Shown one piece after another: positions 25,336 through 43,074 of a stretch of 64,000 nucleotides of DNA. Numbering within the stretch: the first letter of the stretch is position 1; every line of letters starts with the position of its first letter. The notes below the pieces were generated by a model. The model saw only the letters and a program-made list of their open reading frames with translations, searched no databases and was not told where the DNA came from. The DNA lies in NCBI GenBank assembly GCA_965267575.1, contig OZ254086.1, positions 1,056,001-1,120,000 of the forward strand, written 5' to 3'. The DNA comes from Calditrichales bacterium (GTDB lineage: Bacteria; Calditrichota; Calditrichia; Calditrichales; J004). The translations under genes and the position numbers were made by a program.

Positions 25336-27471
25336 GTGAGTATGGCGGTAGAGACCTTCTACTACGATAACCGCATCGTCCGCAACTTCTCGCTGGCCAC
25401 CCTGGTTTGGGGTGTCGTCGGCATGCTTGTCGGACTGATCGCGGCCATTCAGCTATACCTGCCGGATCTGAACCTGGGACTGCCTTATACCACGTTCGGC
25501 CGGCTGCGTCCGTTGCACACAAACGCCGTTATCTTCGCGTTTGCGGGTAACGCCATTTTTACAGGGATTTACTATTCACTGCAGCGCCTGTGCCGCGCGC
25601 GCATGTACAGCGATTTGCTCAGCAAGATCCATTTCTGGGGCTGGCAGTTTATCATCGTGCTGGCGGCGGTAACGCTGGTACTTGGCTTTACCACAAGCAA
25701 GGAATACGCCGAGCTGGAATGGCCGATCGACATCCTGATCACGCTGGTCTGGGTTGTTTTCGCCATCAATATGTTTGGTACGATCGTTAAACGCCGCGAG
25801 CGCCATATGTACGTTGCCATCTGGTTTTATATCGCCACGGTAGTTACGGTGGCCGTGCTGCACATCGTTAACTCCTTTGAAATTCCCGTCTCTTTCTGGA
25901 AGAGCTACCCGATTTACGCCGGTGTACAGGACGCGCTGGTGCAGTGGTGGTACGGTCACAATGCCGTGGCTTTCTTTCTGACCACGCCGTTCCTGGGCAT
26001 GATGTATTACTTCCTGCCCAAGGCTGCCAATCGTCCGGTGTTTTCCTACCGTCTCTCCATCGTACACTTCTGGTCGCTCATTTTCATTTATATCTGGGCC
26101 GGTCCGCACCATCTTATCTACACCGCTTTGCCGGATTGGGCGCAGACGCTGGGAACGGTCTTTTCCATTATGCTGATTGCGCCATCCTGGGGTGGCATGC
26201 TTAACGGGCTGCTCACCCTGCGCGGCGCCTGGGACAAGGTGCGCGAAGAGCCGATGCTTAAATTTATGGTGGTGGCGGTTACCGCTTACGGTATGGCCAC
26301 CTTCGAAGGACCGATGCTTTCCATCAAAAGCATCAACGCGCTTACACACTACACGGACTGGACCATTGCCCACGTTCATATCGGCGCTTTGGGCTGGAAC
26401 GGTTTTCTGACCTTTGGTATGCTTTACTGGCTGGTCCCCAAAATTTTCCAAACAAACCTTTATTCCAAAAAGCTGGCCAACGTCCATTTCTGGATGGGCA
26501 CGCTGGGTATCGTTTTTTACGCCCTGCCGATGTACTGGGCCGGTTTAACCGAAGGCCTGATGTGGAAGCAGTTTACTTCCGAAGGCATTCTACAGTACCC
26601 CAACTTCCTGGAAACGGTTCTGCAGGTGGTACCGATGTACATTGTGCGCTCCATCGGCGGTTTACTCTATCTCAGCAGTGTGATCCTTGGCGGCTATGTG
26701 CTGCTTAAGACGGCCAAAACCGGCAGCCTGCTGGCCCAGGAAAAAGCCGAAGCGCCGGCGCTGGAACGCGAACACGATCCCAAAGCGGAACGCGCCTACT
26801 GGCACCGCTGGATTGAAAGCCGCCCCACACAATTCGTCGCTGCAACAACGGTTCTCATCCTGATTGGCGGCGTTGTTGAAATGGTGCCCACTTACCTGGT
26901 GAAATCCAATGTGCCGACTATTGCCAGTGTTAAGCCCTACACACCTCTGGAACTGGAAGGCCGCGATATTTACATCCGTGAAGGCTGCAACAACTGCCAC
27001 TCACAGATGGTGCGTCCTTTCCGCTCGGAGACGGAGCGCTACGGCGAATACTCCAAGGCCGGTGAATTTGTATATGACCATCCCTTCCTGTGGGGCTCCA
27101 AACGTACCGGGCCGGATCTGCATCGCGTAGGCGGCAAATACCCCGACGCCTGGCATTACAACCACATGCTCGATCCGACATCCATGTCGCCGGGCTCGCT
27201 GATGCCGCCCTATCCATGGTTGATCGAAGACGAACTGGATACATCGGACCTGCTGGCGAAGATCGACGCCATGCGCAGCCTGGGTGTGCCCTACTCCGAT
27301 AATTTCAATGCCATTGCCATGGCCGACCTGCAAAACCAGGCACAGCAAATTGCCAATGGCCTTAAAGATGCCGGCATCAACAGCGCCCCGGACAAAGAGA
27401 TAATCGCTTTGATTGCCTACCTGCAGAGACTGGGCACGGACATCAAGGCCGGTAAAATGGCGGGACAATAG
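25336..27471 (+). CDS. ccoN: cbb3-type cytochrome c oxidase subunits I/II, fused CcoNO
   Basis: FGRLRPLHTN, QWWYGHNAV, WAGPHH and AHVH motifs, then the CcoO motif EGCNNCHSQMVRP...GSKRTGPDL. Alternative start ATG 25342. Confidence 0.97.
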   Translation: MSMAVETFYYDNRIVRNFSLATLVWGVVGMLVGLIAAIQLYLPDLNLGLPYTTFGRLRPLHTNAVIFAFAGNAIFTGIYYSLQRLCRARMYSDLLSKIHFWGWQFIIVLAAVTLVLGFTTSKEYAELEWPIDILITLVWVVFAINMFGTIVKRRERHMYVAIWFYIATVVTVAVLHIVNSFEIPVSFWKSYPIYAGVQDALVQWWYGHNAVAFFLTTPFLGMMYYFLPKAANRPVFSYRLSIVHFWSLIFIYIWAGPHHLIYTALPDWAQTLGTVFSIMLIAPSWGGMLNGLLTLRGAWDKVREEPMLKFMVVAVTAYGMATFEGPMLSIKSINALTHYTDWTIAHVHIGALGWNGFLTFGMLYWLVPKIFQTNLYSKKLANVHFWMGTLGIVFYALPMYWAGLTEGLMWKQFTSEGILQYPNFLETVLQVVPMYIVRSIGGLLYLSSVILGGYVLLKTAKTGSLLAQEKAEAPALEREHDPKAERAYWHRWIESRPTQFVAATTVLILIGGVVEMVPTYLVKSNVPTIASVKPYTPLELEGRDIYIREGCNNCHSQMVRPFRSETERYGEYSKAGEFVYDHPFLWGSKRTGPDLHRVGGKYPDAWHYNHMLDPTSMSPGSLMPPYPWLIEDELDTSDLLAKIDAMRSLGVPYSDNFNAIAMADLQNQAQQIANGLKDAGINSAPDKEIIALIAYLQRLGTDIKAGKMAGQ

Positions 27472-28365: not shown

Positions 28366-29814
28366 ATGTCCGCTGAAACAGGAACAAAGCAGAATAAAAA
28401 CGGCAACGACCAGAGCTTTCGCGACTCCATCGCCACGGTGGATAAGGGAGGCAAGCGCGTTTGGATTTATCCCAAAAAACCAAAGGGGAGATTCTATAAT
28501 GCACGCACATGGGTCAGCCTGTTCCTGCTGGCGATCTTCTTTGCCGGACCGTTTATAGATGTGAACGGCCAGCCGCTGCTGCTGCTCAATTTCCTTGAGC
28601 GCAAGTTCATAATCTTCGGGCTGGCCTTCTGGCCGCAGGATTTTCATCTGTTTCTGCTGGCGACGATAACCTTTGTTGTATTTGTGGTATTGTTCACCGC
28701 CGTTTTCGGGCGCGTCTGGTGCGGCTGGGCCTGCCCGCAAACCGTCTTTATGGAGATGGTTTTCCGTAAAATTGAATACTGGATAGAAGGCGACGCCCGC
28801 CAGCAGCGCAAGCTGAACGCCCAACCATGGAATGCCGAAAAGGTTTTCAAAAAAAGCAGTAAGCAAATCATATTTTTTACGATTGCTTTTCTGATCGGCA
28901 ATATGTTTATGGCTTACGTGGTGGGTGATGAACGGTTGATCGAGATCATCACGGCTCCGCCAACGGAGAACCTGGCCGGCTTTATCGCCGTGATGGTGTT
29001 CAGCGGCATTTTCTACTTCATCTTTTCCTGGTTCCGTGAGCAGGCCTGCGTTATCGTTTGTCCCTATGGCCGCTTTCAATCCGTTCTTCTGGATAAAAAC
29101 AGCGTGGTTGTTTCCTACGATTTTGTTCGTGGTGAAAAGCGAGGCAAACTGAGCAAGGGGCTGCCAACCATCCCCGACCAGGGCGATTGTATTGATTGCC
29201 ACCAGTGCGTCGATGTCTGCCCCACCGGCATCGACATCCGCAATGGCACGCAGCTTGAGTGCGTTAACTGCACCGCCTGCATTGATGCCTGCGACAACAT
29301 TATGGACAAGATCAATAAGCCGCGCGGGCTGATCCGTTTCGCTTCCTACAACCAGATCACCACGGATGACAAACGCGTTTTCACGCCACGGGTGATCGCT
29401 TATTCGGTTGTTTTGGTGGCCTTGCTGGGTATTTTGACCAGCCTGCTGCTTACCCGCAGCCCCATAGAAACAACTATTCTTCGCGCGCCGGGATCGCTTT
29501 ACACAACGCTGCCCAATGGCAATCTCAGCAATCTCTATTCCGTAAAGATCGTTAACAAGACTTTTGATGAAATGCCGCTCGAGCTGCGTCTGAAAAACCG
29601 CGAGGGCAAATTAACACTGGCCGGTTCGTCGCTGGTGATCCCGCCGGATGACCTGGTGGAATCGGCGCTGATCGTAGAGCTGCAGCCGCAGGATTTGTCG
29701 GCAGGCAAAAACCCGCTGGTCATTGAAATTATGTCCGGCGGAGAAATAATAGACGAAGTAAAAACGGGCTTTCTGGCCCCGGGAGGAACCAACAATGCCA
29801 ACAGCATCCAATAA
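28366..29814 (+). CDS. ccoG: cbb3 accessory 4Fe-4S membrane protein CcoG/FixG
   Basis: GRVWCGWACPQT, CPYGRFQ and CIDCHQCVDVCPTGIDIRNGTQLECVNCTACIDAC. Confidence 0.96.
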   Translation: MSAETGTKQNKNGNDQSFRDSIATVDKGGKRVWIYPKKPKGRFYNARTWVSLFLLAIFFAGPFIDVNGQPLLLLNFLERKFIIFGLAFWPQDFHLFLLATITFVVFVVLFTAVFGRVWCGWACPQTVFMEMVFRKIEYWIEGDARQQRKLNAQPWNAEKVFKKSSKQIIFFTIAFLIGNMFMAYVVGDERLIEIITAPPTENLAGFIAVMVFSGIFYFIFSWFREQACVIVCPYGRFQSVLLDKNSVVVSYDFVRGEKRGKLSKGLPTIPDQGDCIDCHQCVDVCPTGIDIRNGTQLECVNCTACIDACDNIMDKINKPRGLIRFASYNQITTDDKRVFTPRVIAYSVVLVALLGILTSLLLTRSPIETTILRAPGSLYTTLPNGNLSNLYSVKIVNKTFDEMPLELRLKNREGKLTLAGSSLVIPPDDLVESALIVELQPQDLSAGKNPLVIEIMSGGEIIDEVKTGFLAPGGTNNANSIQ

Positions 29815-32518: not shown

Positions 32519-33596
32519 CCCCGCTTTTGCCGTTGGTGGGCAGGGTGATCACAAAATGCGCCCCTTCCGTGCTGTCATTCAGAATAATATCGCCACCGTG
32601 TTCGCGCACCACCTGGCGCGTAATGGCCAGCCCCAGCCCCGTGCCCATGTCCTTGCTGGTAAAAAAGGGCTGGAAAACTTTGTCGCGAAAATTTTTGGGT
32701 ATGCCTTTTCCACTGTCACGCACGTGGATATAAGCGTAGGGTGGGTGGTGTTCCAGTTTGACGTCAATGCGTCCTCCATCTGGTAAAGCTTCGATGCCAT
32801 TGCGCAGCAGGTTGAGCATAACGCGGTGCATCTGACTGTGATCAAAGCTGGCGGAAATTTTGCTTTCCGGCTTTTCCAGGTGAATTCGCACTTCGTGGTT
32901 TTCGGCTTCGTGGATCATAAAATGACAAACCTCGTGTAACAGGCTGCCAAGGTCATTAGCCTCCCTGCGTGATCGGGGCAGGCGCGAAAATTGAAGATAT
33001 TCGTTGGTCAGTTCGGCCAGCCGGTCCACCTCACGGATGATGGAGCGCAGCAGGGAAACGGCCTCGGCATGATCCATTTTTCGCGGATCGCTCAATTCAT
33101 CTTCAAGCAGTTCGGCATTCAGGCTGATGGAGGAAAGCGGATTGCGCACTTCGTGGGCTACTTTAGAAGCCATTTGGCCGATGGTCGCCAAACGTTCGGA
33201 ATGCGCCATTTGCTCCTGCTTTTTGAGCTTTTCCGTCAGGTCAATTTCGATGCCCATGTAGCCAATGCGTTCCCTCTCATGTACAATCGGCGTAATAGAT
33301 AACAGCACGGGTACCAGGTTGCCGTCTTTGCGCTTGTTGATGATCTCACCCTGCCAGTGTCCTTCTTTTTCTATGGATTCCCACATCTTTTTATAGAAAA
33401 GGTCGCTGGTGGCATCGGAGCGCAGAACGTTGGTCGTTTTCCCGATAAGCTCATCACGCTGCCAGCCAAAAATTTCCACGAAGGCGTCATTCACATCGGT
33501 GATGAGACCACGCAGGTCGGTTAGGATGATAGCGTCCGTGGAATGCTTGAAGGCACTGTAAACAAGGTGTTTTTTATCTTCTGACATATTTCTCAT
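32505..33596 (-). CDS. cytoplasmic PAS-domain histidine kinase
   Basis: PAS/PAC domain (VNDAF...WQGEIINKRKDG), AHEVRNPL, NLLRNG, DSGKGI and GTGLGL; no TM segment; overlaps the regulator gene. Confidence 0.95.
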   Translation of the reverse strand: MRNMSEDKKHLVYSAFKHSTDAIILTDLRGLITDVNDAFVEIFGWQRDELIGKTTNVLRSDATSDLFYKKMWESIEKEGHWQGEIINKRKDGNLVPVLLSITPIVHERERIGYMGIEIDLTEKLKKQEQMAHSERLATIGQMASKVAHEVRNPLSSISLNAELLEDELSDPRKMDHAEAVSLLRSIIREVDRLAELTNEYLQFSRLPRSRREANDLGSLLHEVCHFMIHEAENHEVRIHLEKPESKISASFDHSQMHRVMLNLLRNGIEALPDGGRIDVKLEHHPPYAYIHVRDSGKGIPKNFRDKVFQPFFTSKDMGTGLGLAITRQVVREHGGDIILNDSTEGAHFVITLPTNGKSGDENA

Positions 33597-33665
33597 GATC
33601 TAAAACAAAGATTGTGATATTACTAAATAGATAATGTTAAAACAAAACTTCCGACGCATCTCTTC

Positions 33666-34364
33666 CTATCCGTAAACAATCCCGGGAAAAAGAAAATTTA
33701 TAAAAAGTGTGTGCACGGGATCGAACACCCAATCGAAAACATACCAGGCAATAAAGATGCTGATAAACGGTGATGCCGGGTTGGAAATATAATCGAAAAT
33801 CTCATCGATATAAGAGCGGCTGAGAAAGAGGAAAAGCACATAACTGCCGTCAAAGCCGGGCATGGGCAGAAGATTGAACAGGAACAGGATCAGGTTTAGC
33901 GAAAACAGGATGCTTAAAAAGGACGTGGCGAAAGCCAGTTCCGGGGAAGCCGGATCGGCGATATGCGAAAAACCGATACTGTCCGGAGCATAAAACCAGC
34001 CGGCATAAAACCCGATGCGGATAATGACAATCGCCAAAATAACCAGCAGCAGGTTGGAGAGCGGTCCGGCCAGCGCCACCAGCGCGCTTTTGCGTGGATT
34101 GCTTCGTGCCCAGTTCACATTGTAGGGTGCAGAGGCCCAGCCGATCATCCAGCCCATCAGGAAATAGGCGGCAATGGGTACTACAACCGTTCCCACGGGT
34201 TCACGCTTTATGTGTGGAAGCGGGTTCAGCGTAACCTGTCCTCCGGCATATGCCGTGCTGTCGCCAAGACGCAATCCGCTCCAGGCGTGGGCCGCTTCGT
34301 GCAATACAATCGAAAAAATAAAAACGATATACCATATCACGGCCATGTGTAAATCGATTGACAT
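33666..34364 (-). CDS. site-2 protease (M50 family)
   Basis: Start MSIDLH; HEAAH, VALAGPLSN and FNLLPMPGFDG motifs. Confidence 0.92.
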   Translation of the reverse strand: MSIDLHMAVIWYIVFIFSIVLHEAAHAWSGLRLGDSTAYAGGQVTLNPLPHIKREPVGTVVVPIAAYFLMGWMIGWASAPYNVNWARSNPRKSALVALAGPLSNLLLVILAIVIIRIGFYAGWFYAPDSIGFSHIADPASPELAFATSFLSILFSLNLILFLFNLLPMPGFDGSYVLFLFLSRSYIDEIFDYISNPASPFISIFIAWYVFDWVFDPVHTLFINFLFPGIVYG

Positions 34365-34458
34365 GTTCAATCTCCGGATTTTAGGAAGGCTTAATTTCTG
34401 AAAATGTGCAAACAGAATCAAAGCACCGCAGGATTTATTAATCGGGAAGGGCGATGAC

Positions 34459-34491
34459 AAAAAAAAGCCGGGACACATTCTGCGCCCCGGC
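34459..34491 (-). terminator. intrinsic terminator after gdhA
   Basis: Minus strand GCCGGG...CCCGGC followed by T8. Confidence 0.8.
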
Positions 34492-34519
34492 CTTGATAAA
34501 ATACTCGTCAGTTAAGATA

Positions 34520-35935
34520 TCACGGGAAAATACCCAGCTGCTCGTAGGATTTAGCCACCTTTTCCAGGGAACAAATAAACGCCGCAATGCGCATATCGAT
34601 GTTCTCTTTGGCGTGCTTGCGCTTAATTTCGTCAATCTGCAGGTAGGCATTTACCATCGTTTCTTCCAGGCCGGAAAAAACAAGCTCCTTTTCATCCGCC
34701 CCGACGGCGATTTCGCTGAAAACTTTCTGGTCCAGTTTTTTGCCGGTAAGCTTTTCCATAGCCTGCAGAATCTTCTTGTTACTATCCTCTTCAAAACGAC
34801 GGCTCATGCGGCCAAAACGCACGTGGGACAAATTTTTCAGCCATTCAAAATAAGAGACTGTCACACCGCCGGCATTTAAGTAAAGGTCGGGGATCACCAG
34901 CACGTTCTTCTCAGCCAGGTAGTTACTGGCATCGGCCGTTATGGGACCGTTCGCTGCCTCGCCGATAATCTTTGCTTTTATATTTTTCACATTGTCCATG
35001 GTAATCTGGTTTTCCAGCGCCGCCGGTATCAGGATATCACATTCCATCTCCAGGGCGTTTTTGGAAGGCTCTATATTCCTGGCTCCGGGAAAATTCAATA
35101 TTGATTCATTTTCCCTGCGGTGCTCCATCACCTCATCCACATCCAGGCCCTTCTCGCTATAGATGGCCCCTTCGTATTCAGCCAGGCAAACGATTTTAGC
35201 GCCACCTTCCTGGCAATATTTTGCGGCATGATAGCCCACGTTCCCGAGGCCCTGCACGATAACACGCTTGCCTTCCATGCCGGGCTTAAGGCCCAATTTT
35301 TTCATTTCGTCTTTTTGATTGCATGCCTCGCGGATGCCGAAAAATACCCCCTTACCGGTTGCTTCGGTGCGGCCGCGCACACCGCCCTGAGACAACGGTT
35401 TGGCCGTCACGCAAGCCAGGGCGTCCAGCGAATCATTGGTCAGCGACATATAGGTGTCGGCGATCCAGGCCATCTCGCGGGAGCTTGTACCGAAGTCAGG
35501 CGCCGGCACATCCACGCCCGGTCCGATGAAGTTTTTTTTGACCAGCTCAAAGGTGAACCGGCGCGTCAGGCGTTCCAGCTCGGCGTCTGAGTATTTCCAT
35601 TTTTGAATTTTTACGCCCCCTTTGGCTCCGCCGAAAGGTACATCGACAATCGCGCACTTATAGGTCATCAGCGAGGAGAGCGCCTTCACTTCGTCTTCGG
35701 TAACATTACCGGCGTAGCGGATACCTCCTTTGCCGGGCAGCTTGTGGTGCGAATGTTCCGCACGCCAGGCTTCTACCACTTCAATGCTGCCGTCATCTTT
35801 TTTAAGGGGAAAAGAAAAGTGGCAAACCGTATTAACCATCTTGATCTGCTTAAGAAGACCGGCGGGATACTTTGTGAAGCTGCTGGCCCTATCAAACGAT
35901 TTGTTTACTTCCTTAAAAAAACTGATCTTAGACAT
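34520..35935 (-). CDS. gdhA: Glu/Leu/Phe/Val dehydrogenase, probably glutamate dehydrogenase
   Basis: [33 protein letters not shown] and [12 protein letters not shown] motifs. Confidence 0.93.
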
Positions 35936-36063
35936 AATCGGGGACCTTTCTGTTGGTGGGACGATCTAATTCGAAAATAATCAGGCGACGTGCCACAAAA
36001 AATGCGTTTTTTTACACTCAATTGCAAAATCGAAATCAAAAAGCGTTCAGGTGAAAACAGAAA

Positions 36064-36390
36064 ATGGTGTTTAAGCGCGATTGGATGAAAGCGGTATGGG
36101 CCATCGCCGGAATGATTCCGCCGGGCAAGGTGATGACCTATGGCTCGATATCGGCTTTGCTGCCCGGTGTTACGGCGCGTATGGTGGGCGCGGCCATGGC
36201 TGCCTGTCCGGAGGATGGGGACATTCCCTGGTGGCGGGTAATCAACAGCCAGGGCAAGATCAGCCCAAGGCCGTCCGGACACCAGCACCTGCAGCGCAAC
36301 CTGCTGGAGGAAGAAGGATTGATCTTTTCTGCCGGAGGCCGGGTTGGCCTGCAGCGCTACCTGTTCAGGCCGCCAGACACACCAGCGTAA
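36064..36390 (+). CDS. alkyltransferase-like (ATL/MGMT family) protein
   Basis: IPPGKVMTYG, ARMVG and PWWRV (Trp in place of the catalytic Cys). Confidence 0.88.
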   Translation: MVFKRDWMKAVWAIAGMIPPGKVMTYGSISALLPGVTARMVGAAMAACPEDGDIPWWRVINSQGKISPRPSGHQHLQRNLLEEEGLIFSAGGRVGLQRYLFRPPDTPA

Positions 36391-37270
36391 AGACTATATA
36401 TTCAATAAAGAAAAGCTTCCAGACAAACTGGTAAAAGGCCGTCATTTCTTTAGGATTTTCGGCTTGCAAACTTTTGCCGCGCAGCCAGAACCACAGTGCC
36501 AGCAGCAGATGGGCGATCGCCATGCTCCAGGGTTCCACGCCCGGCAGACCCGCCACCGCAAAAACCGCCAATAAAAGATATCCGCCGATTATAATCGTTT
36601 TGCCCCAGCTGAAAACCCGCTCCGCGCCAACCCGCAACGACAACGATCCGATTGAAAAGCGCTTGTCTCCGCGCATATCCGGGATATCCTTGAACCAGGC
36701 GATAACAACGCTTTGGCCAAACATAAAAACGGTCAGCAAAATAATTTTTAAAGGCAGGCCCTGCGTTGTTCCGTAGATGTGCTGGAAATGCAAAAACAGA
36801 AAAATGTTGACCAGCAGGCCGCGCACAGCAAGGATGCAAAAGGCTGCCCAAAAATGGAATCGTTTTAGGCGCACCGGAGGCAGCGAGTAAAGCGTGCCCA
36901 GAAGCAGGCTGCCAAACACCGTAATCATCAACCAGGCGCTTTGCAGCAGTGCCGTAATGATGGAAACGGCCAGCGCGCTGAAAATGATGATCCAGCCGCC
37001 GCGAATGGTGATGGCACCCGAAGCCAGCGGCAACCCGGGTTTGTTTATTTTATCGATTTCCACATCCGAAAGCTGGTTTAGGCCAACGATATAAATGTTT
37101 GCCCCCCAGCAGGAAACCAACGCCAGCAATAGCCCGCTAATGGCTTGCAGCGGATTTGCTGTAAACTGCGTATGGTCCCAGGCAATCACAGCCAGCGCGC
37201 TGACGCTGAGCGTGGTGCCAATAATCGTATGGGGGCGCGAAAAGGCCCACAGGTGACGCAGAAAGGTCAT
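36365..37270 (-). CDS. homogentisate phytyl/prenyltransferase (HPT/VTE2, UbiA superfamily)
   Basis: Start MTFLRHLWAFSRPHTIIGT; NIYIVGLNQLSDVEIDKINKPGLPLASG, YSLPPVRLKRF, KDIPDMRGD and FYQFVWKLFFIEY match the HPT motifs recalled from plants and cyanobacteria. Confidence 0.93.
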   Translation of the reverse strand: MTFLRHLWAFSRPHTIIGTTLSVSALAVIAWDHTQFTANPLQAISGLLLALVSCWGANIYIVGLNQLSDVEIDKINKPGLPLASGAITIRGGWIIIFSALAVSIITALLQSAWLMITVFGSLLLGTLYSLPPVRLKRFHFWAAFCILAVRGLLVNIFLFLHFQHIYGTTQGLPLKIILLTVFMFGQSVVIAWFKDIPDMRGDKRFSIGSLSLRVGAERVFSWGKTIIIGGYLLLAVFAVAGLPGVEPWSMAIAHLLLALWFWLRGKSLQAENPKEMTAFYQFVWKLFFIEYIVFTLVCLAA

Positions 37271-38106
37271 GGTTTTTGCCCGCTTAGTACGACAAATCGA
37301 ATCAATCCCTGCTTGTAGCCTTTTATCATGCGTCGCACTGTAAGCGCGGCGAACAGCGCTTCCCTGCCGGCGGCAAGCGTGGCAACGATGCTTTTGGGCT
37401 TGAGGATAATACGCCATAACTGCTTCCAGAAAGGGGCTACGAACTCTGTCCAGTCGGCGTGTTTCAGATTAACAAAACCGGCCCTTTCGGCAGCGGCGGC
37501 CAGCATGCTTCCGCTGACCCATCGTGGCAGGTGGAAATGACGGTTGATTTTCTCAAGCAGCTTTTTTTCATCGCCGCTCAGCGTATCGCTGGTTTCTTTA
37601 TGGCACCAGGTGGCGCAGGCAAAGTGTCCGCCGGGCTGAAGCAGGTTGAAAAAAGTGCTGAACAGCGCGTCCTTATCGGGAGCATGCTCTGCGCTTTCCA
37701 TGGACCAGATAAAATCGAAACTGTTGTCTGGAAGCGGTGGCCGGGTCATGTCGGCCCGGAGAAATCGGCATGACTTTTCTACCTTGTTCTGTCGCGCCAG
37801 CTGTCCGGCGCGCCGGGCCTGCCGGGGGCTGAGTGTTAACCCAATGGTTCGCACCGACGGCCATTTTTCTTTGAGATAAAAGCTGCTGCCGCCGATACCA
37901 CATCCGGCATCAAGAATATGCTTCGGGCTGTTTTCGATTCCGGCAAAGGTCAGCAACTCTTCGATCATGCGCACCTGTGCGAGGATGGGATCTTTGTGCT
38001 GCCCGTTATAATAACCGTGATGCATATGTATGCCCCACTGGCTCTCCCACAAGGCCGAGGAACGATCGTAAAAGCGGGCGATATTACTGTTTAGCGAAGA
38101 AGCCAT
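37267..38106 (-). CDS. gamma-tocopherol methyltransferase-like (VTE4/Slr0089 type)
   Basis: IARFYDRSSALWESQWGIHMHHGYY, AQVRMIEELL, ILDAGCGIGGSS, FDFIWSMESAEH, ATWCH and DWTEFVAPFW motifs. Confidence 0.9.
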   Translation of the reverse strand: MASSLNSNIARFYDRSSALWESQWGIHMHHGYYNGQHKDPILAQVRMIEELLTFAGIENSPKHILDAGCGIGGSSFYLKEKWPSVRTIGLTLSPRQARRAGQLARQNKVEKSCRFLRADMTRPPLPDNSFDFIWSMESAEHAPDKDALFSTFFNLLQPGGHFACATWCHKETSDTLSGDEKKLLEKINRHFHLPRWVSGSMLAAAAERAGFVNLKHADWTEFVAPFWKQLWRIILKPKSIVATLAAGREALFAALTVRRMIKGYKQGLIRFVVLSGQKP

Positions 38107-38972
38107 AGACCTGCCGAGATGAGCAAGATGATCAGTGCGGAGAGAAATACGATCTGCTTGCGGTTGAACAGCTTAACACCGCGCAGTTCGGGACGCGTGA
38201 AACGCGCCCACACAGAGTAAACTACTGCTGCCGGTATAAACAATCCACCAAAAAGCGAACCAATAAAGAAGCGCAACCAGCCGGAAACACCCAGCTTGCT
38301 TGGCATCTCAGCAGGCGCTTTGGGGACAGTGGTTGATGCCGGTTTTCGGCCGCTAAGGGCAATGCCATATTTCTCATGGCGTATCCAGGGCGGGGCCACA
38401 TATTTTTTCTCGATGGATTCAAAGCCGGCCTCGCGGAACCACTGCTCGTACTCGTCTTCGGCGGGGAACAGCATCCAGACGCGGGCCACAAAACGGGCCA
38501 GCTTTTGGCGCGGCTCCAGCGGACCTATCATCAGCGCGGTGCCACCGGGTTTTACTACGCGCAGGGATTCACGGATGCCACGGGCCGGGTCGGGCCAGTA
38601 TTCGATGCTGCCCGCGGAAACGTAGCAATCAAAGGTGTTATCGGGGAAGGGCAGGTTTTCAGCATCACCGCGGGTGAAAGCCACGTTTTTCAGTTGCGGC
38701 TTTTTGATTGCTTTAGACATCTGGTGCGGGCTCTGGTCCATCCCGAAAACGCGTGCCGCCGGCAGCTTTTCGACGACGCCGCCGGTGGTAAAACCGGTGC
38801 CACAGCCCACATCAACAATCCGGGCCTCATCGGCATTCGGCGGATTAAGCAGGCTCAGGGCCTGGCTACGCATCTCCTCCGTCCAGAAAAAGGGATTGAC
38901 GTAATTATCATAAAAGCGCGAAAGGAAGCTGTAAAACCAAAAGGCCGCTTTTTTGTTTTGCACGTATCGCAT
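38091..38972 (-). CDS. MPBQ/MSBQ methyltransferase, plant VTE3/APG1 type
   Basis: QNKKAAFWFYSFLS..YD..VNP..WTEEMR, DVGCGTGFTT, DQSPHQ, YVSAGSIEYWPDP.RGIRE, VWMLFP and a C-terminal hydrophobic anchor, all colinear with plant VTE3 as recalled. Confidence 0.9.
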   Translation of the reverse strand: MRYVQNKKAAFWFYSFLSRFYDNYVNPFFWTEEMRSQALSLLNPPNADEARIVDVGCGTGFTTGGVVEKLPAARVFGMDQSPHQMSKAIKKPQLKNVAFTRGDAENLPFPDNTFDCYVSAGSIEYWPDPARGIRESLRVVKPGGTALMIGPLEPRQKLARFVARVWMLFPAEDEYEQWFREAGFESIEKKYVAPPWIRHEKYGIALSGRKPASTTVPKAPAEMPSKLGVSGWLRFFIGSLFGGLFIPAAVVYSVWARFTRPELRGVKLFNRKQIVFLSALIILLISAGLWLLR

Positions 38973-39026
38973 GGGGGTCTACCTGCCAGTTTAAGAATGA
39001 TTGATCAGCTTAACGCATGCTTTAGG

Positions 39027-39160
39027 AACCCATCCCCAAATCCCTTCCCTAAATTTTAGGGAAGGGACTTTTTCCGGTTGTCGTTATTCTGGTATTTATC
39101 AACAAAACGCCGTTTTTCTCCCCTTCCATTGGAACAAGGGAAGGGGCCGGGGGATGGGTT
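39027..39160. repeat. REPIN/MITE-like element with terminal inverted repeats
   Basis: AACCCATCCCC...GGGGATGGGTT ends, each arm with an internal CCCTTCC...GGAAGGG hairpin; lies inside the tocopherol cluster. Confidence 0.75.
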
Positions 39161-39169
39161 CAATATTTC

Positions 39170-40153
39170 TCAAATCACTTCCAAACCTTTATAATCCCCA
39201 ACGATCTCCGCGCCGCCGTGGCTGCTTTTATCTTTGAGTACGAGCCGGTCGTTTTTCCACAGGTGGATGGAAATATATCCATTAAGACACTCATCAATCT
39301 CCCGCAACATGCCTTTTTCCGTGGGTGCTTTCAGGATCGCGCTCTTGCCCGTTTCGGCGCGGAGCTGTAAACGATAGTGCTCGTTGATCAATTCCATCTC
39401 GATGACAGGCGGGTTCGTCACAAGCCGTTGGATGCGCGATTTGTTGTAGGTGGTGAATTGGATCAGCCCGTCGTCGGGTGTAAGCAGTCCGGCAATAAAG
39501 CCGTTAAAGTCGCCGCGTATCCAGGGCACATGGGCCACGGAGACAAACAGGCTAAGCGGCTGCACGCTGAAGTGATTGGCCTGCAGCCAGATCCAGTTGC
39601 GCGGGAAGGCTTTGCCCCAGTCTTTCTCGATGTAGCCGCGGCCTTTTTCAAAGTTCAGGGTTTTGCCGTTTTCAACCAGTTCGCCGTCCACAACATGATC
39701 CATGCTGACCACACCGTGATAGCACTGCATAAAGGGCATCCAGGCATACCAGCCCATGCAGCCGGGTGAACGCACACTGGACGGCCAGCGCTTGTTGCCG
39801 GAAAAGGTAAGCGAACCGTTCATGCTCCAGTCATCATCCTGCAGGTCCAGGTAGATAAAACCTTCAGTGAAACGATTGGGTCCGATGCTGATATCCAGCG
39901 ACGTGCCGTAGGAGCGGAAGTCGCCCGCGTCAAAGCGGATATAGCGGCTTTTGTTTTTTGCACCATCCAGGATTTGGATAAACGCTTCGCTGTACTCTTC
40001 GGCTGGACTTTTATAAATACCGGGGATTATAGCCAGGCTGTGACCGTTTTGGGCATCGACGCATTTGTAATACCAACCTTCAAAAAAGGGGCCGCTCTCC
40101 TTTTTACCGTGGTAGCCTGCGGGCTTAAGGATACCTTTTATGTGTTGCAGCAT
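39170..40153 (-). CDS. tocopherol cyclase family protein (VTE1-like)
   Basis: GYHG...FFEGWYYK, GRGYIEKDWGKAFPRNWIWLQAN and a C-terminal GGAEIVG. Confidence 0.88.
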   Translation of the reverse strand: MLQHIKGILKPAGYHGKKESGPFFEGWYYKCVDAQNGHSLAIIPGIYKSPAEEYSEAFIQILDGAKNKSRYIRFDAGDFRSYGTSLDISIGPNRFTEGFIYLDLQDDDWSMNGSLTFSGNKRWPSSVRSPGCMGWYAWMPFMQCYHGVVSMDHVVDGELVENGKTLNFEKGRGYIEKDWGKAFPRNWIWLQANHFSVQPLSLFVSVAHVPWIRGDFNGFIAGLLTPDDGLIQFTTYNKSRIQRLVTNPPVIEMELINEHYRLQLRAETGKSAILKAPTEKGMLREIDECLNGYISIHLWKNDRLVLKDKSSHGGAEIVGDYKGLEVI

Positions 40154-40183
40154 GGATGAAATATAGGGAAAAAATTCCGCAAT

Positions 40184-40636
40184 TTAGCCTGCGGGAATCT
40201 TGTTTACCAAAACCTTTTCTTTTGATATTTGAATATTAAACCGGTGGCCTTGTATCTCGAAATCGAACGAATGATCTTTCTGCCACTTAATGAATTTAAG
40301 TCCCGATAACTCTCCTTCAAGTGAAAACTCTTTTGCAAACTGCATCATGTCAAACTGCTTGATATATTCAATTTTTTTGCAGCATCCCTCTTGCCCATAA
40401 GTAACTTTCTCAAAATACATCGAGTCATAGATTTCGGAAGTAGTTACAATAACTCTAAATGCAAATGATGTAACTTCCTCCTTTGTTTGCATTTTGAGCC
40501 AAATAGGCTCGCTTTCGCTAAGAAATGTTATCCATGGATAAATATCAGGTTGTGAAACGTCTTTAGTGTCTATCCATATCGATTGAGAATAGCAATTTAT
40601 TGTTAATATAGTGATAAATAGAAAAATTCTTTTCAT
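40184..40636 (-). CDS. hypothetical secreted protein, AT-rich
   Basis: 150-aa ORF with a signal peptide (MKRIFLFITILTINCYSQ); family not recognised. Confidence 0.6.
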   Translation of the reverse strand: MKRIFLFITILTINCYSQSIWIDTKDVSQPDIYPWITFLSESEPIWLKMQTKEEVTSFAFRVIVTTSEIYDSMYFEKVTYGQEGCCKKIEYIKQFDMMQFAKEFSLEGELSGLKFIKWQKDHSFDFEIQGHRFNIQISKEKVLVNKIPAG

Positions 40637-40788
40637 AATATTTAGTGAGAATAAGGTTAATATTTAGCCACACATTTAAACCATTGCTAAGTAGAAAATT
40701 CATTTAACACGCCTTGCTGAGGCTTACGTGATTTACTATTTAATCCACTTTTTAGCTAAATAAAATTTAGTGGCAAAAAAAGCAAACG

Positions 40789-41271
40789 TTATTTTACTTT
40801 TAGCTCCACTTTATAAAGAGGCAAAAAGCGACCCTTGATACTTTCCGATTCCCTTTCACCCGCGGGAGTTGCGCCCATGGCAATGTAAAACGGTCCCGCA
40901 TAGGGATCGGATTGAATCAGCATTGTTTTCGCCTCCATGTGCCGGGCCAGAGTTACGGCGTGGTCAAACAACATCCTGCCAATGCCCTTTCCAAAATGGG
41001 CGGGCTCTACAAATAACGCCTCCAGTTCCACGGTGCTGCTGTCAACCCGCTTCAGCGCGTAAAAGCCCACAATATCTGACGACCCCTCTTCCGCAAGATG
41101 GTAAGAAAAGGCCATGTTTTTAAGCTTTGCTTCGGTCACTTCCAGCTCGGCGCGGCAACGCTCCATAAAATCATCCGGATAGCCCCAGGATGCTTTTGAG
41201 CGCATAGCCAGGCCAGAGATTGTGGCCAGGTCACTCGGCTTAACCTGCCTTATAAAGATATTGCTCTTCAT
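40789..41271 (-). CDS. GNAT acetyltransferase
   Basis: LFVEPAHFGKGIGRML and SDPYAGPFY motifs. Confidence 0.9.
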   Translation of the reverse strand: MKSNIFIRQVKPSDLATISGLAMRSKASWGYPDDFMERCRAELEVTEAKLKNMAFSYHLAEEGSSDIVGFYALKRVDSSTVELEALFVEPAHFGKGIGRMLFDHAVTLARHMEAKTMLIQSDPYAGPFYIAMGATPAGERESESIKGRFLPLYKVELKVK

Positions 41272-41298
41272 ATTTGGATTTGCTGCTCTTACAATAAT

Positions 41299-42102
41299 CT
41301 AAAACCGCAAAACAAAATGCACACCCGTTGGCGTTATGAAAAACTGTGATTGCTGCTTACTCGTTTCGCCGTCCGCCAGGTTTTTAAAACTTTGGCCGAC
41401 GCTCTTTCCGATGGAGTAGCCTAACAAAGCCCCGGCCACGAAATCCGAAAACCAGTGGATATTTGTGGAAATACTTAATCCTACAAAAGCGGCATAGGCC
41501 GCAGACGACGCCTTGATGGTACTGTTCTCCGGGTACATCTGCCACATAACCGTAGCCATGGCAAAAGCATTTGTGGTGTGTCCGCTTGGCCAGCCGTCAA
41601 AAATGCCGCGACGCATAAAGCCAAAGTTGAAATCATCACTGTAATCCACGTCTGTTCCGTATTCATCTTCCGGTGGCTTGCGCCCGGTGATGGCCTTGTA
41701 GGTAGAAGAGACCAGCAGACTTGTCATCACCGATTGTCCCAATGCCAGCCCGGTGTACATCAACCTGGCATCTTCATCTGCCTTTCCTGAAAAATAAAGG
41801 ATAATGGGTACCGTCAAAGGTACAAGCCCGCCGACGCTTACACCGGCAAAACCCGCATCGGATATGGCCTTATTCTCCTGCATGTAGAGCCAGTAATCCC
41901 AATCTGCCCCGCTTTCGATGATGGCATAGGACAAGCCAATTGCCGAGGCGTGATACAAACCGTAACCATTGCTGAAAGAGCTCAGCAGGTTTTTATCAAA
42001 TTCATGGAACAGGTCACCGGCTGTGGGTAAGTTTTTGTCGTTTTCGGATGCAACCAGGGTGATGTTTGCAGCAAGAAATAGAAGTATTGTGAGTGAACGC
42101 AT
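41299..42102 (-). CDS. PAP2-family phosphatase-like membrane protein
   Basis: K..TGRKPP, PSGH and HWFSD motifs. The third motif reads ISTNIH, without the usual SR. Confidence 0.8.
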   Translation of the reverse strand: MRSLTILLFLAANITLVASENDKNLPTAGDLFHEFDKNLLSSFSNGYGLYHASAIGLSYAIIESGADWDYWLYMQENKAISDAGFAGVSVGGLVPLTVPIILYFSGKADEDARLMYTGLALGQSVMTSLLVSSTYKAITGRKPPEDEYGTDVDYSDDFNFGFMRRGIFDGWPSGHTTNAFAMATVMWQMYPENSTIKASSAAYAAFVGLSISTNIHWFSDFVAGALLGYSIGKSVGQSFKNLADGETSKQQSQFFITPTGVHFVLRF

Positions 42103-42179
42103 AATGATTTGGACCGTAATGGGATCGTTTGTTCTAATAAAGAACTAAAACCTATTGTTATTTCATTTGGCTTCCAAAT

Positions 42180-42300
42180 CGCGTTCGCTATCGGAATCGA
42201 TTATTAAACGCCCTATTGGATAGACAGCCCTTCGTGAATAAAAGTCTCCTTTTTGCCGATCCCGATTACGATAACGATTTCAATCGGATTACGATTCGTA
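42180..42300. repeat. degenerate hexamer (CGATHAC-like) repeat tract
   Basis: CGATCCCGATTACGATAACGATTT at about 42257-42280; similar tracts occur at 49425-49441 and 59198-59226. Confidence 0.5.
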
Positions 42301-42365
42301 TGCAGATTAAATATGATATAGTCATTTCGTTAAAAGTACAATCGTAATAAAGAAAATGTTGGGGC

Positions 42366-42396
42366 AAAAAAAATGGCGGCCAATTCGACCGCCATT
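42366..42396 (-). terminator. intrinsic terminator
   Basis: Minus strand AATGGCGG-loop-CCGCCATT followed by a T run. Confidence 0.8.
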
Positions 42397-42415
42397 GTTC
42401 AAAGTGGGATTATTT

Positions 42416-42928
42416 TTAAAGATTTATCTTGGCTTCGAAAGAGCCGTTTGTAACGTCCTTTACATCACTCTGGTCGGAGCCATTTAACGGCGCGTCAAAC
42501 GCAACGGTACCCTTCACGCTCGATTCGGAAAGCTCCGTAATCGTCACCGTGCCGCTTGTGGCCAGGTAGGTTTTTATATCCAGCGGGTCGCTTGCGCTGT
42601 TGGTTGTGTAGCGCCCGGTTGCTTGTCCGCCGATCAACGCAATGTTAAACGTACCGACGGCCGCGCCCTGCATAATGACTACCTGCATCTGCTGAGACAA
42701 ACCGCTGTTATCCGTATACTGGCCGGTAACCGTAAGCACGCCGCTGTTGCTGGTGGCTACAACGGCCGTATTGGCACTCCAGGACGTGCCGTTAATGTCG
42801 GCAGTAAAAGAGCCGTCTGTGTTGTTATTGTTGTTGCCTTCTTCATTGGAGCTGCTGCTGTCTTCCGAGCAGGCGGCCACAAATAAAAAGCTCAACATCA
42901 AAAAAAGTGAAAAGATACGCTTGAACAT
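42416..42928 (-). CDS. lipoprotein of unknown function
   Basis: Lipobox VAAC, S/N-rich linker, beta-rich domain (GTVTITE...VKGTVAF...VTNGSF). Confidence 0.75.
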   Translation of the reverse strand: MFKRIFSLFLMLSFLFVAACSEDSSSSNEEGNNNNNTDGSFTADINGTSWSANTAVVATSNSGVLTVTGQYTDNSGLSQQMQVVIMQGAAVGTFNIALIGGQATGRYTTNSASDPLDIKTYLATSGTVTITELSESSVKGTVAFDAPLNGSDQSDVKDVTNGSFEAKINL

Positions 42929-43074
42929 AGTTCCTCCTAAGGGTTATCGTAAAACATGTCTGCTCCTTAGAAGGCAACTGGCGGGCCAAAACGGATTTTA
43001 GCCGCCTCAGCCCCTTTTCTGTTTCATTGGCGCGACAATTTGTATGGATAGGAGCGTCGCGCGTATGCGACAGA

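Follow-up and report, generated by a model that had tools for sequence, protein, structure and literature searches.

Among the closest described systems is the tocopherol pathway of cyanobacteria and plants, whose four enzymes we take to correspond as follows: homogentisate prenyl(phytyl)transferase (HPT), VTE2 or Slr1736; MPBQ methyltransferase, VTE3 or Sll0418; tocopherol cyclase, VTE1 or Slr1737; and gamma-tocopherol methyltransferase (gamma-TMT), VTE4 or Slr0089. VTE4 acts on the chromanol. The plant plastoquinone route consists of homogentisate solanesyltransferase and VTE3, and, among enzymes of other pathways, kievitone hydratase acts on a double bond in the prenyl group of a phenolic. 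Proteins of the tocopherol-cyclase family (PF14249) in heterotrophic bacteria have been remarked on as being of unknown function in the available part of an earlier study, which proposes YxEKNWG / FP+xWxW+QxNxF as the catalytic motif of tocopherol cyclases (PLoS One 2016, PMC4963081); that part of the text does not report the gene context of the heterotroph proteins. Here we describe a gene cluster in a window of 64,000 nucleotides (the whole stretch of DNA analysed) from a sediment-type bacterium placed by inference in the phylum Calditrichota; in this cluster a cyclase-family gene lies next to genes for HPT and two methyltransferases.

Organization and integrity of the locus

As originally predicted, four intact, co-oriented genes occupy positions 36365–40153, all on the minus strand. 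They encode, in order, a cyclase-like protein of the tocopherol-cyclase family proposed to close the chromanol ring (39170–40153, 327 aa, PF14249), a plant VTE3-type MPBQ/MSBQ C-methyltransferase (MT-A; 38091–38972, 293 aa), a gamma-TMT-type C-methyltransferase (MT-B; 37267–38106, 279 aa) and an HPT of the UbiA family (36365–37270, 301 aa, NF009525), the length of the latter assuming translation from the ATGA-coupled ATG (the longest open reading frame reaches 37417; homologues have about 298 aa). Direct reading of the sequence confirmed the predicted 16-nt overlap between MT-A (stop codon TAA, 38093–38091) and MT-B (ATG, 38106–38104), as well as the 4-nt overlap ATGA (37270–37267), which holds the stop codon of MT-B and the start codon of HPT; both overlaps bear out translational coupling. 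The cyclase and MT-A genes are separated by a 197-nt spacer (38973–39169) carrying two copies of a dispersed palindromic, REP-like repeat of ~45–50 nt (at about 39026–39071 and 39111–39162); it contains a palindrome with a 12-bp stem (39041–39067), and parts of it recur at no fewer than 10 other sites in the genome (blastn-short). A terminator-like hairpin followed by a T-run on the minus strand (40177–40194), just upstream of the cyclase start and found by consensus scan only, is likely the 5′ boundary of the transcription unit, albeit on weak evidence, the region as a whole having 11 terminator-like sites against a shuffled expectation of 9.3, i.e. not above it. Within the explanation that we favor, at slightly better than even probability, the four genes make up a single operon, which may be subdivided at the repeat-bearing spacer that follows the cyclase gene.

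We regard it as very improbable that the cluster is an artefact, cyanobacterial or algal contamination, or a functionless, decaying remnant of horizontal transfer. Suspicion might arise from the GC content of the cluster (53.4% vs. 49.6% for the genome), from the lack of an HPT match over the cut-off in all 9 other genomes of the host family and throughout the rest of the host order, and from the fact that no single short-read contig bridges the cyclase/MT-A spacer. However, the host genome is a single contig of 4.73 Mb (completeness 98.2%, contamination 0.1%), and short-read contigs from four runs of one sample span 33500–43000 at 100% identity, breaking only at 39133–39162, within the spacer repeat, with similar depth on either side. 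The host is not a cyanobacterium, and the region is not chimeric. The same gene order exists in other Calditrichota; every open reading frame and motif is intact; and a metagenomic relative has a cyclase and an HPT that are 91% and 95% identical, respectively, each from a 30,304-nt contig. Further, since the proteins are 43–54% identical to their nearest relatives, the cluster is no recent import from cyanobacteria. The host also proved to be a non-phototroph, as predicted: a search of the whole 98.2%-complete, single-contig genome yielded no match to PF00124 or PF00223 (reaction-centre genes) and nothing above the cut-off for chlorophyll synthase, while HPPD, MenA and cbb3 oxidase are encoded.

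Families of the four proteins

Both methyltransferases are of the class-I SAM type. MT-A matches Pfam Methyltransf_11 and UbiE, shares 50–53% identity with a protein of Trifolium pratense (over residues 2–217), and has two C-terminal hydrophobic segments (hydropathy windows >1.6 starting at residues 233–237 and 268–275); the Atlas lead for it was a Streptophyta MPBQ/MBSQ cluster, and its bacterial relatives (48–57% identity) carry the JGI name 'MPBQ/MSBQ methyltransferase'. The original assignment to the MPBQ methyltransferases was therefore right as to family, but the protein is of the plant VTE3 type and not of the cyanobacterial Sll0418 type. MT-B belongs to the gamma-TMT family as named, sharing 43–45% identity with the cyanobacterial paralogue known at JGI as 'tocopherol O-methyltransferase' and 31–33% with a second one called 'MPBQ/MSBQ methyltransferase'. 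The call of homogentisate prenyltransferase also held: the protein scores 356 bits against the NCBIfam equivalog NF009525, homogentisate phytyltransferase (cut-off 226), keeps both Asp-rich motifs invariant (N65 Q66 D69 D73; K194 D195 D198 G201 D202), is 43–49% identical to cyanobacterial HPT, and falls in a clade of Calditrichota, Rhodothermota and Bacteroidota proteins that is sister to cyanobacterial HPT. In the trees, all four window proteins have long terminal branches (1.3–1.9 changes per site), which could reflect altered specificity.

The cyclase-family protein scores 97.7 bits against PF14249 (cut-off 26.6), aligning with profile positions 142–335 only, the C-terminal 58% of the profile. 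Cyanobacterial cyclases score 534–550 bits on this profile, as opposed to 79–98 bits for window-type cyclases, and are 20–24% identical to the window protein. On these grounds, and given that the broad bacterial family occurs mostly without HPT, orthology with VTE1/Slr1737 was rejected, so that of the predicted tocopherol cyclase the family stands and the orthology does not. Nonetheless, 25 columns are invariant with three cyanobacterial VTE1 sequences, including FEGW (24–27), Y174xEKxWG180, FP (183–184), W189, N193 and F195, and every residue of the motif proposed in the available part of PMC4963081 is conserved. The AlphaFold model (pLDDT 91.2) is a double barrel resembling AttH and kievitone hydratase, and Foldseek hits had E values of 3e-11 to 8e-9 (kievitone hydratase, 3e-10), TM scores of 0.49–0.58 and 9–14% identity. 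The predicted fold matches that of enzymes protonating the C=C bonds of isoprenoids or prenyl groups, e.g. kievitone hydratase. In the cyclase tree the window protein lies in a 16-row subclade (support 94/90) that contains every HPT-linked cyclase. Among 80 metagenomic homologues (36–47% identity), the fetched DNA contained neither HPT nor MT-A nor MT-B in any case, and a MenA-like UbiA gene in only 6; for 40 of the 80, each flank extended over at least 1.3 kb, and this UbiA gene was present in 5 of these 40.

Distribution and precursor supply

The trait is not confined to this genome but occurs widely in heterotrophic bacteria of the FCB group. The complete order CYC-MTA-MTB-HPT was found in at least 8 Calditrichota genomes, the host included, and on a Saprospiraceae contig, and this recurrence excludes chance. 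The MTA-MTB-HPT trio was present in 19 of the 32 non-cyanobacterial loci fetched; in Calditrichota, Saprospiraceae/Lewinellaceae and Rhodothermales such a trio is often joined by a geranylgeranyl reductase and sometimes by a cyclase. A dedicated GGR_cat reductase, consistent with a phytyl chain, lies inside the cluster at 15 loci of Bacteroidota and 3 of Calditrichota. Within Calditrichota, the cyclase family occurred in 14 of 18 HPT-positive genomes (absent from 4) and 12 of 68 HPT-negative ones, and HPPD in 16 of 18 and 21 of 68, respectively; in the order of a Saprospiraceae genome (G090), the cyclase family occurred in 19 of 23 HPT-positive genomes (again absent from 4) and 43 of 378 HPT-negative genomes. 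As related genomes are not independent, these ratios overstate the support. Because HPT is found in no other genome of the host order, the probable origin of the cluster is either acquisition from other Calditrichota or retention of a gene set shared with them. Annotation pipelines already give these genes their names, and no published account of such a cluster was found in the literature searched. Cultured bacteria are among the carriers.

Homogentisate can be supplied by HPPD (448 bits, cut-off 277), the gene for which has an hmgA-like gene 2 kb away and is shared by 8 of the 9 HPT-less family mates, so that it is catabolic rather than dedicated. Four genes of the geranylgeranyl-reductase family exceed the cut-off in the host genome, where a close copy of the cluster-type reductase is missing (best paralogues 25–28% identical); the product could therefore be a tocopherol, a tocotrienol or a non-cyclised quinol. 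The host also encodes MenA (230 bits, cut-off 102), so the main respiratory quinone is not made by this operon.

Proposed pathway and comparison with known systems

We propose, from family membership of the encoded proteins, that the operon would yield a fully methylated tocochromanol from homogentisate and a C20 prenyl diphosphate, its host being a non-phototroph that uses menaquinone and lives aerobically or microaerobically. Homogentisate from HPPD, encoded elsewhere in the genome, would be prenylated and decarboxylated by HPT to 2-methyl-6-prenyl-benzoquinol, which MT-A would methylate at C3; the cyclase-family barrel enzyme may then protonate the first side-chain double bond so that ring closure to the chromanol occurs through the phenolic oxygen, and C5 methylation by MT-B would yield the alpha form, a putative scavenger of membrane lipid-peroxyl radicals. 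A tocopherol- or tocotrienol-type chromanol is the most likely product, favored by a little over even chances, and its side chain could be either phytyl or geranylgeranyl. An operon in a heterotroph for all four steps from homogentisate to a vitamin E-like chromanol would challenge the textbook view of a trait restricted to photosynthetic organisms.

A possible but rather doubtful alternative is that the product is a methylated prenyl-benzoquinol or -benzoquinone (like plastoquinone, methyl-plastoquinone or alpha-tocopherolquinone) that lacks the chromanol ring and serves as a redox lipid or an antioxidant, the cyclase-family protein modifying the isoprenoid chain in another way, e.g. by hydrating a double bond. 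Many carriers indeed keep just MTA-MTB-HPT, with or without the reductase, clustered, the cyclase being elsewhere or not found; most members of the cyclase family occur without HPT, and the solved structures closest in fold belong to hydratases, lyases and pericyclases rather than to a known chromanol cyclase. The chromanol reading is favored, however, by the conservation of the whole proposed catalytic motif, by the strong enrichment of the cyclase family in HPT-positive genomes of two phyla, by a gamma-TMT-type enzyme whose expected substrate, as for VTE4, is a chromanol, and by MenA, which leaves a second respiratory quinone unneeded. It is unlikely that the prenyltransferase and methyltransferases make a different meroterpenoid from another aromatic acceptor or chain length, e.g. 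solanesyl as in HST. The long branches of HPT, MT-B and the cyclase would fit such a product, the sequence tools applied do not separate HPT, HGGT and HST, and the MenA-like UbiA plus cyclase modules of HPT-less relatives show the cyclase family at work with prenylated aromatics of other kinds; against it stand an HPT score that exceeds the equivalog cut-off by 130 bits, the grouping of the protein with HPTs, the company of HPPD in nearly all HPT-positive Calditrichota, and the C20-specific reductase family embedded in the clusters of relatives.

The window cluster shares with the cyanobacterial and plant tocopherol pathway its four reaction types and enzyme families, HPT and MT-B being 43–49% and 43–45% identical, respectively, to their cyanobacterial counterparts; of the 48 cyanobacterial-clade loci fetched, 10 likewise have the MT-B gene immediately upstream of HPT. 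In contrast, the host is a non-phototroph whose four genes share one operon; its MPBQ methyltransferase is of the plant VTE3 type, which adjoins HPT in 0 of those 48 loci, and its cyclase is related to VTE1 only remotely, at the level of a paralogue. The plant plastoquinone route likewise proceeds by homogentisate prenylation and then VTE3-type methylation, as proposed here, whereas the window adds gamma-TMT-type and cyclase-family enzymes and its relatives embed a C20 reductase. With AttH/CrtC-type proteins (kievitone hydratase 7a0t, putative AttH 2ich, and the decalin-forming pericyclases Fsa2, Phm7 and CghA) the cyclase shares a predicted double β-barrel, at 9–14% sequence identity; the solved members include no chromanol cyclase, and likeness in fold does not by itself speak for a common reaction. 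Finally, the cyclase is a member of the heterotroph tocopherol-cyclase-like proteins and has their YxEKxWG and FPxxWxWxxxNxF region, as given in the available part of PMC4963081; compared with the proteins described there, its gene sits in a full operon with HPT and two methyltransferases, and this embedding suggests a candidate substrate for it.

Gene cluster, host and precursor supply

The minus strand of the window carries four ORFs one after another: a tocopherol-cyclase-family gene (39170-40153, 327 aa), two methyltransferase genes, MT-A (38091-38972, 293 aa) and MT-B (37267-38106, 279 aa), and a gene for a UbiA prenyltransferase, HPT (36365-37270, 301 aa with the start taken at the ATG shared with the stop codon of MT-B). 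When the sequence was read directly, both overlaps named in the original prediction, 16 nt between MT-A and MT-B and an ATGA between MT-B and HPT, were borne out. The cyclase and MT-A genes are separated by a 197-nt spacer with two copies (39026-39071 and 39111-39162) of a 45-50-nt dispersed palindromic, REP-like repeat, relatives of which occur at at least 10 other sites of the genome (e.g. near C1:154761, 157558, 2262710, 3175483 and 4680845). Promoter and terminator scans returned counts no different from shuffled expectation. The neighbouring genes are unrelated (a MGMT-type DNA-binding protein, glutamate dehydrogenase, a 150-aa unknown protein, a GNAT and a PAP2 phosphatase), and no orthologue of the flanking glutamate dehydrogenase was found in nine family mates (E <= 1e-100).

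The host genome (G000), inferred to belong to Calditrichota, is a single contig (C1) of 4,732,520 bp, 98.2% complete with 0.1% contamination. That the host is not a phototroph, as originally proposed, stood up to a genome-wide search for type-I and type-II reaction-centre genes and chlorophyll synthase: PF00124 and PF00223 had no matches in G000, with a Synechococcus control positive for both in the same searches, and no chlorophyll synthase scored over cut-off. The fused ccoNO was likewise recovered, as a ccoN-ccoO cbb3 oxidase subunit (25336-27471) with COX1 and FixO in one 711-aa ORF; the window also holds a Cu-transporting P-type ATPase (22763-25180), a FixG-like ferredoxin (28366-29814) and several proteins with T9SS tails. 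MenA is present in the genome. A link to polyunsaturated lipids was not found, as PfaA (TIGR02813) had no match over cut-off in G000 and PKS-like partial matches only. Among the latter, ORFs of 4018 and 1486 aa at G000:C1:4123051-4135200 resemble PfaA in its KS/AT part, at scores far under cut-off, and the region looks like a large PKS-type locus rather than a PUFA synthase.

Homogentisate would be supplied by an HPPD encoded elsewhere in the genome (G000:C1:667103-668167), which scores 448 bits on TIGR01263 against a cut-off of 277. At a distance of 2 kb lies a divergent gene resembling homogentisate dioxygenase, hmgA (G000:C1:664490-665263; 58.5 bits vs a cut-off of 510.75), and HPPD is also present in eight of the nine family mates, all of which are devoid of HPT. 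Based on this neighbour and on the HPT-less relatives, HPPD looks like an older tyrosine-catabolic gene that was tapped by an acquired cluster. HPPD as a member of the cluster itself was considered and rejected, as it was found near the cluster in one of the 115 loci searched (L025).

The prenyl donor raises the matter of a geranylgeranyl reductase (GGR). Such a gene, with GGR_cat and FAD_binding_3 domains, is embedded in the cluster at 15 loci of Bacteroidota and 3 of Calditrichota, in the order GGR-MTA-MTB-HPT or CYC-GGR-MTA-MTB-HPT, where CYC stands for the cyclase-family gene; examples are L068:2622-3791 (plus strand) and L094:1093-2253 (minus strand), with further cases in L010/L103 and L102. 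G000 encodes four TIGR02032-family (geranylgeranyl-reductase) proteins over cut-off, the best of them only 25-28% identical to the cluster-type enzyme. Because the cluster-type reductase is missing, tocopherol and tocotrienol are both possible products for G000.

Family assignment of the four proteins

The prenyltransferase reached 356 bits on the NF009525 equivalog against a cut-off of 226, with residues 2-300 of 301 covered (359.9 bits in the genome-wide NF009525 search). Both Asp-rich motifs, NQxxDxxxD (N65, Q66, D69, D73) and KDxxDxxGD (K194, D195, D198, G201, D202), are kept, with invariance judged in a 33-sequence alignment. These features place the protein in the homogentisate phytyltransferase family (NF009525; VTE2/Slr1736), from which homogentisate is its predicted acceptor and phytyl-PP a candidate prenyl donor beside GGPP and solanesyl-PP. 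In a quick maximum-likelihood tree of 88 rows, with a distant outgroup and without plant or Synechocystis sequences, the HPTs of Calditrichota, Rhodothermota and Bacteroidota (here the FCB group) group together (SH-aLRT 84) as the sister of a cyanobacterial clade that includes Gloeobacteraceae (support 93), and are not nested within crown cyanobacteria; the other UbiA paralogues of G000 fall far from HPT.

MT-A matches Methyltransf_11 and Methyltransf_25 over residues 52-147, a class-I SAM-binding fold, and ends in two hydrophobic segments; plant VTE3 carries a C-terminal membrane anchor. Bacterial relatives at 48-57% identity bear the JGI label "MPBQ/MSBQ methyltransferase", the Atlas lead was a Streptophyta MPBQ/MBSQ cluster, and a Trifolium pratense protein, whose record carries no name, aligns at 50% identity over 207 aa and 53% over 120 aa (E 5e-66). 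Named relatives, identity to a plant protein, and the fold with its hydrophobic C-terminal segments together point to a VTE3-type MPBQ/MSBQ methyltransferase, for which the family predicts methylation of MPBQ at C3. The clover protein (P0248, 446 aa) is aligned twice by MT-A, along residues 68-186 and 188-393, and seems to be a gene model in which two tandem copies of a VTE3-like gene, one partial and one full, have been fused. In a PDB sequence search, both MT-A and MT-B retrieved generic SAM methyltransferases only.

For MT-B, the two cyanobacterial paralogues labelled by JGI as "tocopherol O-methyltransferase" and "MPBQ/MSBQ methyltransferase" offer a direct comparison. In four of the five cyanobacterial genomes searched, MT-B was 43-45% identical to the former (213-236 bits) vs 31-33% to the latter (107-120 bits); in the fifth (G091), the best-hit paralogue alone was visible at the E-value limit used. 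In a quick tree with MT-A as far outgroup, the cyanobacterial MPBQ-type clade, itself long-branched, stood next to the long branch of the window protein, a placement that we judged to be a long-branch effect. A careful tree built with the outgroup removed took its place; there the MPBQ-type clade is set off by a stem longer than 4 changes per site, and monophyly of the FCB MT-B proteins was not rejected by the AU test (p 0.115). By sequence, then, MT-B is closer to gamma-TMT (VTE4/Slr0089) than to the Sll0418-type MPBQ methyltransferase paralogue, and methylation of the chromanol at C5 is predicted for it by family.

The first gene had been called a tocopherol cyclase, and this identification survived in part. 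Membership of the PF14249 superfamily and the motif stood; placement in the VTE1/Slr1737 orthologous group did not. The window protein scores 97.7 bits on PF14249 (cut-off 26.6) over profile positions 142-335 only, the C-terminal part, vs 534-550 bits over positions 1-335 for three cyanobacterial cyclases, to which it is 20-24% identical across a very long inter-clade branch; it thus lies outside that group. Nevertheless, 25 columns are invariant among the window protein, 26 bacterial homologues and the three cyanobacterial cyclases, including an N-terminal FEGW and Y174-x-E176-K177-x-W179-G180, F183, P184, W189, N193 and F195. The Y-x-E-K-x-W-G ... F-P ... W ... N-x-F block is described as the proposed catalytic region in the available text of PMC4963081. 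Superfamily and motif suggest a putative role in closing the chromanol ring on a dimethyl-prenyl-benzoquinol. Nothing meaningful was retrieved with the cyclase in the PDB sequence search (best E 0.6); its AlphaFold model (pLDDT 91.2) found its best structural matches in an AttH-like protein, kievitone hydratase, decalin-forming pericyclases and phosphosteroid lyase, which are barrel enzymes for lipophilic, often isoprenoid, substrates.

Distribution of the cluster and of the wider cyclase family

A pattern scan of species-representative genomes yielded 80 loci, of which 47 are cyanobacterial, one groups with cyanobacteria, 23 are from Bacteroidota (mostly Saprospiraceae and Lewinellaceae), seven from Calditrichota, and one each from Rhodothermales and Chloroflexota. 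MT-A, MT-B and HPT genes follow one another in the order seen in the window at 19 of the 32 non-cyanobacterial loci, four of which have the cyclase as well. Among the 48 loci of the cyanobacterial clade, an MT-B-type gene precedes HPT in 10, and an MT-A-type or cyclase gene beside HPT was found in none. Variants were also seen: two loci from Saprospiraceae/Bacteroidetes (L024, L027) have a reductase and MT-B directly before HPT and no MT-A within the fetched flank, and another (L062) has MT-A and no MT-B, so that their carriers may make differently methylated products.

Within Calditrichota (86 species genomes), HPT scored over cut-off in 18 and the cyclase family was detected in 26, with both in 14; the full CYC-MTA-MTB-HPT arrangement is present in eight genomes of the phylum. 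HPT scored over cut-off in none of the nine family mates of the window organism and, within its order, in that organism alone. HPPD accompanies HPT in 16 of the 18 HPT-positive genomes, the two exceptions being 84-88% complete, vs 21 of the 68 HPT-negative ones. Similarly, in the order that contains the Saprospiraceae genome G090, HPT scored over cut-off in 23 of 401 sampled genomes, and a cyclase-family gene is carried by 19 of these 23 vs 43 of the 378 without HPT. An HPT in the Saprospiraceae-containing order (G207:C3:1280024-1280923) has an in-frame TGA and may be a pseudogene or reflect a sequencing error. Among cultured bacteria, Flavilitoribacter nigricans has an HPT, and MT-A homologues are present in Lewinella sp. 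W8 and in Phaeodactylibacter luteus.

The Calditrichota cyclases divide into two subclades. One (16 rows, support 94/90) holds the window protein, every HPT-linked cyclase and three sequences from genomes in which HPT was not found; the other (11 rows, support 93/95) holds nine sequences from HPT-less genomes and two from genomes with an unlinked HPT. At 9 of 10 loci of HPT-less Calditrichota examined by Pfam, a UbiA-family gene for a protein of about 310 aa adjoins the cyclase-family gene, among them L110:5585-6523 and L106:5488-6516 (minus strand) and L115:8027-8971, L118:2156-3094 and L107:5681-6610 (plus strand); the cyclase family is thus regularly partnered with an aromatic prenyltransferase in this phylum. 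Five of six such neighbours examined by NCBIfam were MenA-like, at 77-107 bits and below cut-offs of 225-264, and the pair is possibly a two-gene module for a cyclised prenyl-(naphtho)quinol. A cyclase and UbiA module universal for the family was ruled out, as a UbiA neighbour occurs at 6 of 80 metagenomic loci (L146, L157, L161, L168, L174, L210) among otherwise heterogeneous neighbours; HPT was beside none of the 80. Five metagenomic loci (L173, L181, L194, L205, L219), probably close kin, share a TauE-like exporter, the cyclase-like gene and a YaaA peroxide-stress protein, and OsmC (L187) and DJ-1/PfpI (L182) are neighbours elsewhere, giving the surroundings of cyclase-like genes a loose flavour of oxidative stress.

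Interpretation and relation to known pathways

Cumulatively, a complete tocochromanol pathway is the most economical reading of the cluster, and one that we favour at slightly better than even confidence. HPPD would provide homogentisate, HPT would prenylate it, the two ring methyl groups would come from MT-A (VTE3 type) and from MT-B (gamma-TMT type), and the barrel enzyme would close the chromanol ring; these steps are assigned from the families of the proteins, their conserved motifs, the operon structure and the patterns of co-occurrence. The main rival, which we regard as unlikely, supposes a methylated prenyl-quinol or quinone in which no chromanol ring is closed; in its favour are the structural matches to hydratase, lyase and pericyclase folds and the many cyclase-family genes away from HPT, and it has set against it the shared catalytic block and the frequent company of cyclase-family and HPT genes. 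Less likely still, and distinctly improbable, is a different acceptor or chain length: the equivalog match, the concurrence of HPPD with HPT and the C20 reductase family embedded in the clusters of relatives speak against it. An artefact or a decaying remnant is the most improbable of these readings. All four cluster proteins have long terminal branches in the trees. The contigs assembled from short reads (four runs of one sample) are 100% identical to the window across 33500-43000 at similar depth, with breaks confined to the repeat inside the spacer between the cyclase and MT-A genes.

Beyond the pathway reading, we tentatively propose, at somewhat less than even confidence, that FCB heterotrophs (Calditrichota, Saprospiraceae/Lewinellaceae and Rhodothermales) make genuine vitamin E by means of a dedicated operon that combines a cyanobacterial-like HPT and gamma-TMT, a plant-type VTE3 and a bacterial-type cyclase that is not orthologous to VTE1. 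Since cultured bacteria carry parts of the gene set, the idea is directly testable. If true, tocochromanol synthesis would not be confined to oxygenic phototrophs, against the textbook generalisation, and a conserved operon in non-phototrophs would revise the sources of vitamin E to be considered in sediments and soils, in activated sludge and on marine particles. Because the VTE3 step of plants is not cyanobacterial in type, the question of its origin would be reopened: plant VTE3 may derive from an FCB lineage, or transfer may have run the opposite way. Part of the large "tocopherol-cyclase-like" family, an orphan since 2016, would gain a candidate function, and its wider members, beside MenA-like prenyltransferases in HPT-less Calditrichota, may make other chromanol-type lipids such as naphthochromanols. 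Compact bacterial operons would also be provided for vitamin E engineering.

Parts of the annotation exist already. The name "homogentisate phytyltransferase" is given by PGAP in Flavilitoribacter nigricans as well as in MAGs of Saprospiraceae, Rhodothermales and Calditrichaeota, and JGI applies "tocopherol cyclase" and "MPBQ/MSBQ methyltransferase" to these genes. A description of a tocopherol cluster in bacteria that are not photosynthetic did not turn up in our full-text literature search, which covered sources other than subscription journals and the supplements of bioRxiv preprints. Tocochromanols are ascribed to photosynthetic organisms; there is reportedly an older account of tocopherolquinone in microorganisms. 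A review (PMC6832408, available text) locates tocochromanols mainly in the thylakoids of chloroplasts and treats Plasmodium and Leishmania as odd exceptions. The nearest precedent that we found dates from 2016, when cyclase-like proteins were noted in heterotrophs and given as of unknown function (PMC4963081, available text). Compared with the known vitamin E pathway, the outline proposed here is the same, and its HPT, VTE3-type and gamma-TMT-type proteins group by sequence with the corresponding families; the difference lies in the cyclase, which does not group with the VTE1 orthologues.
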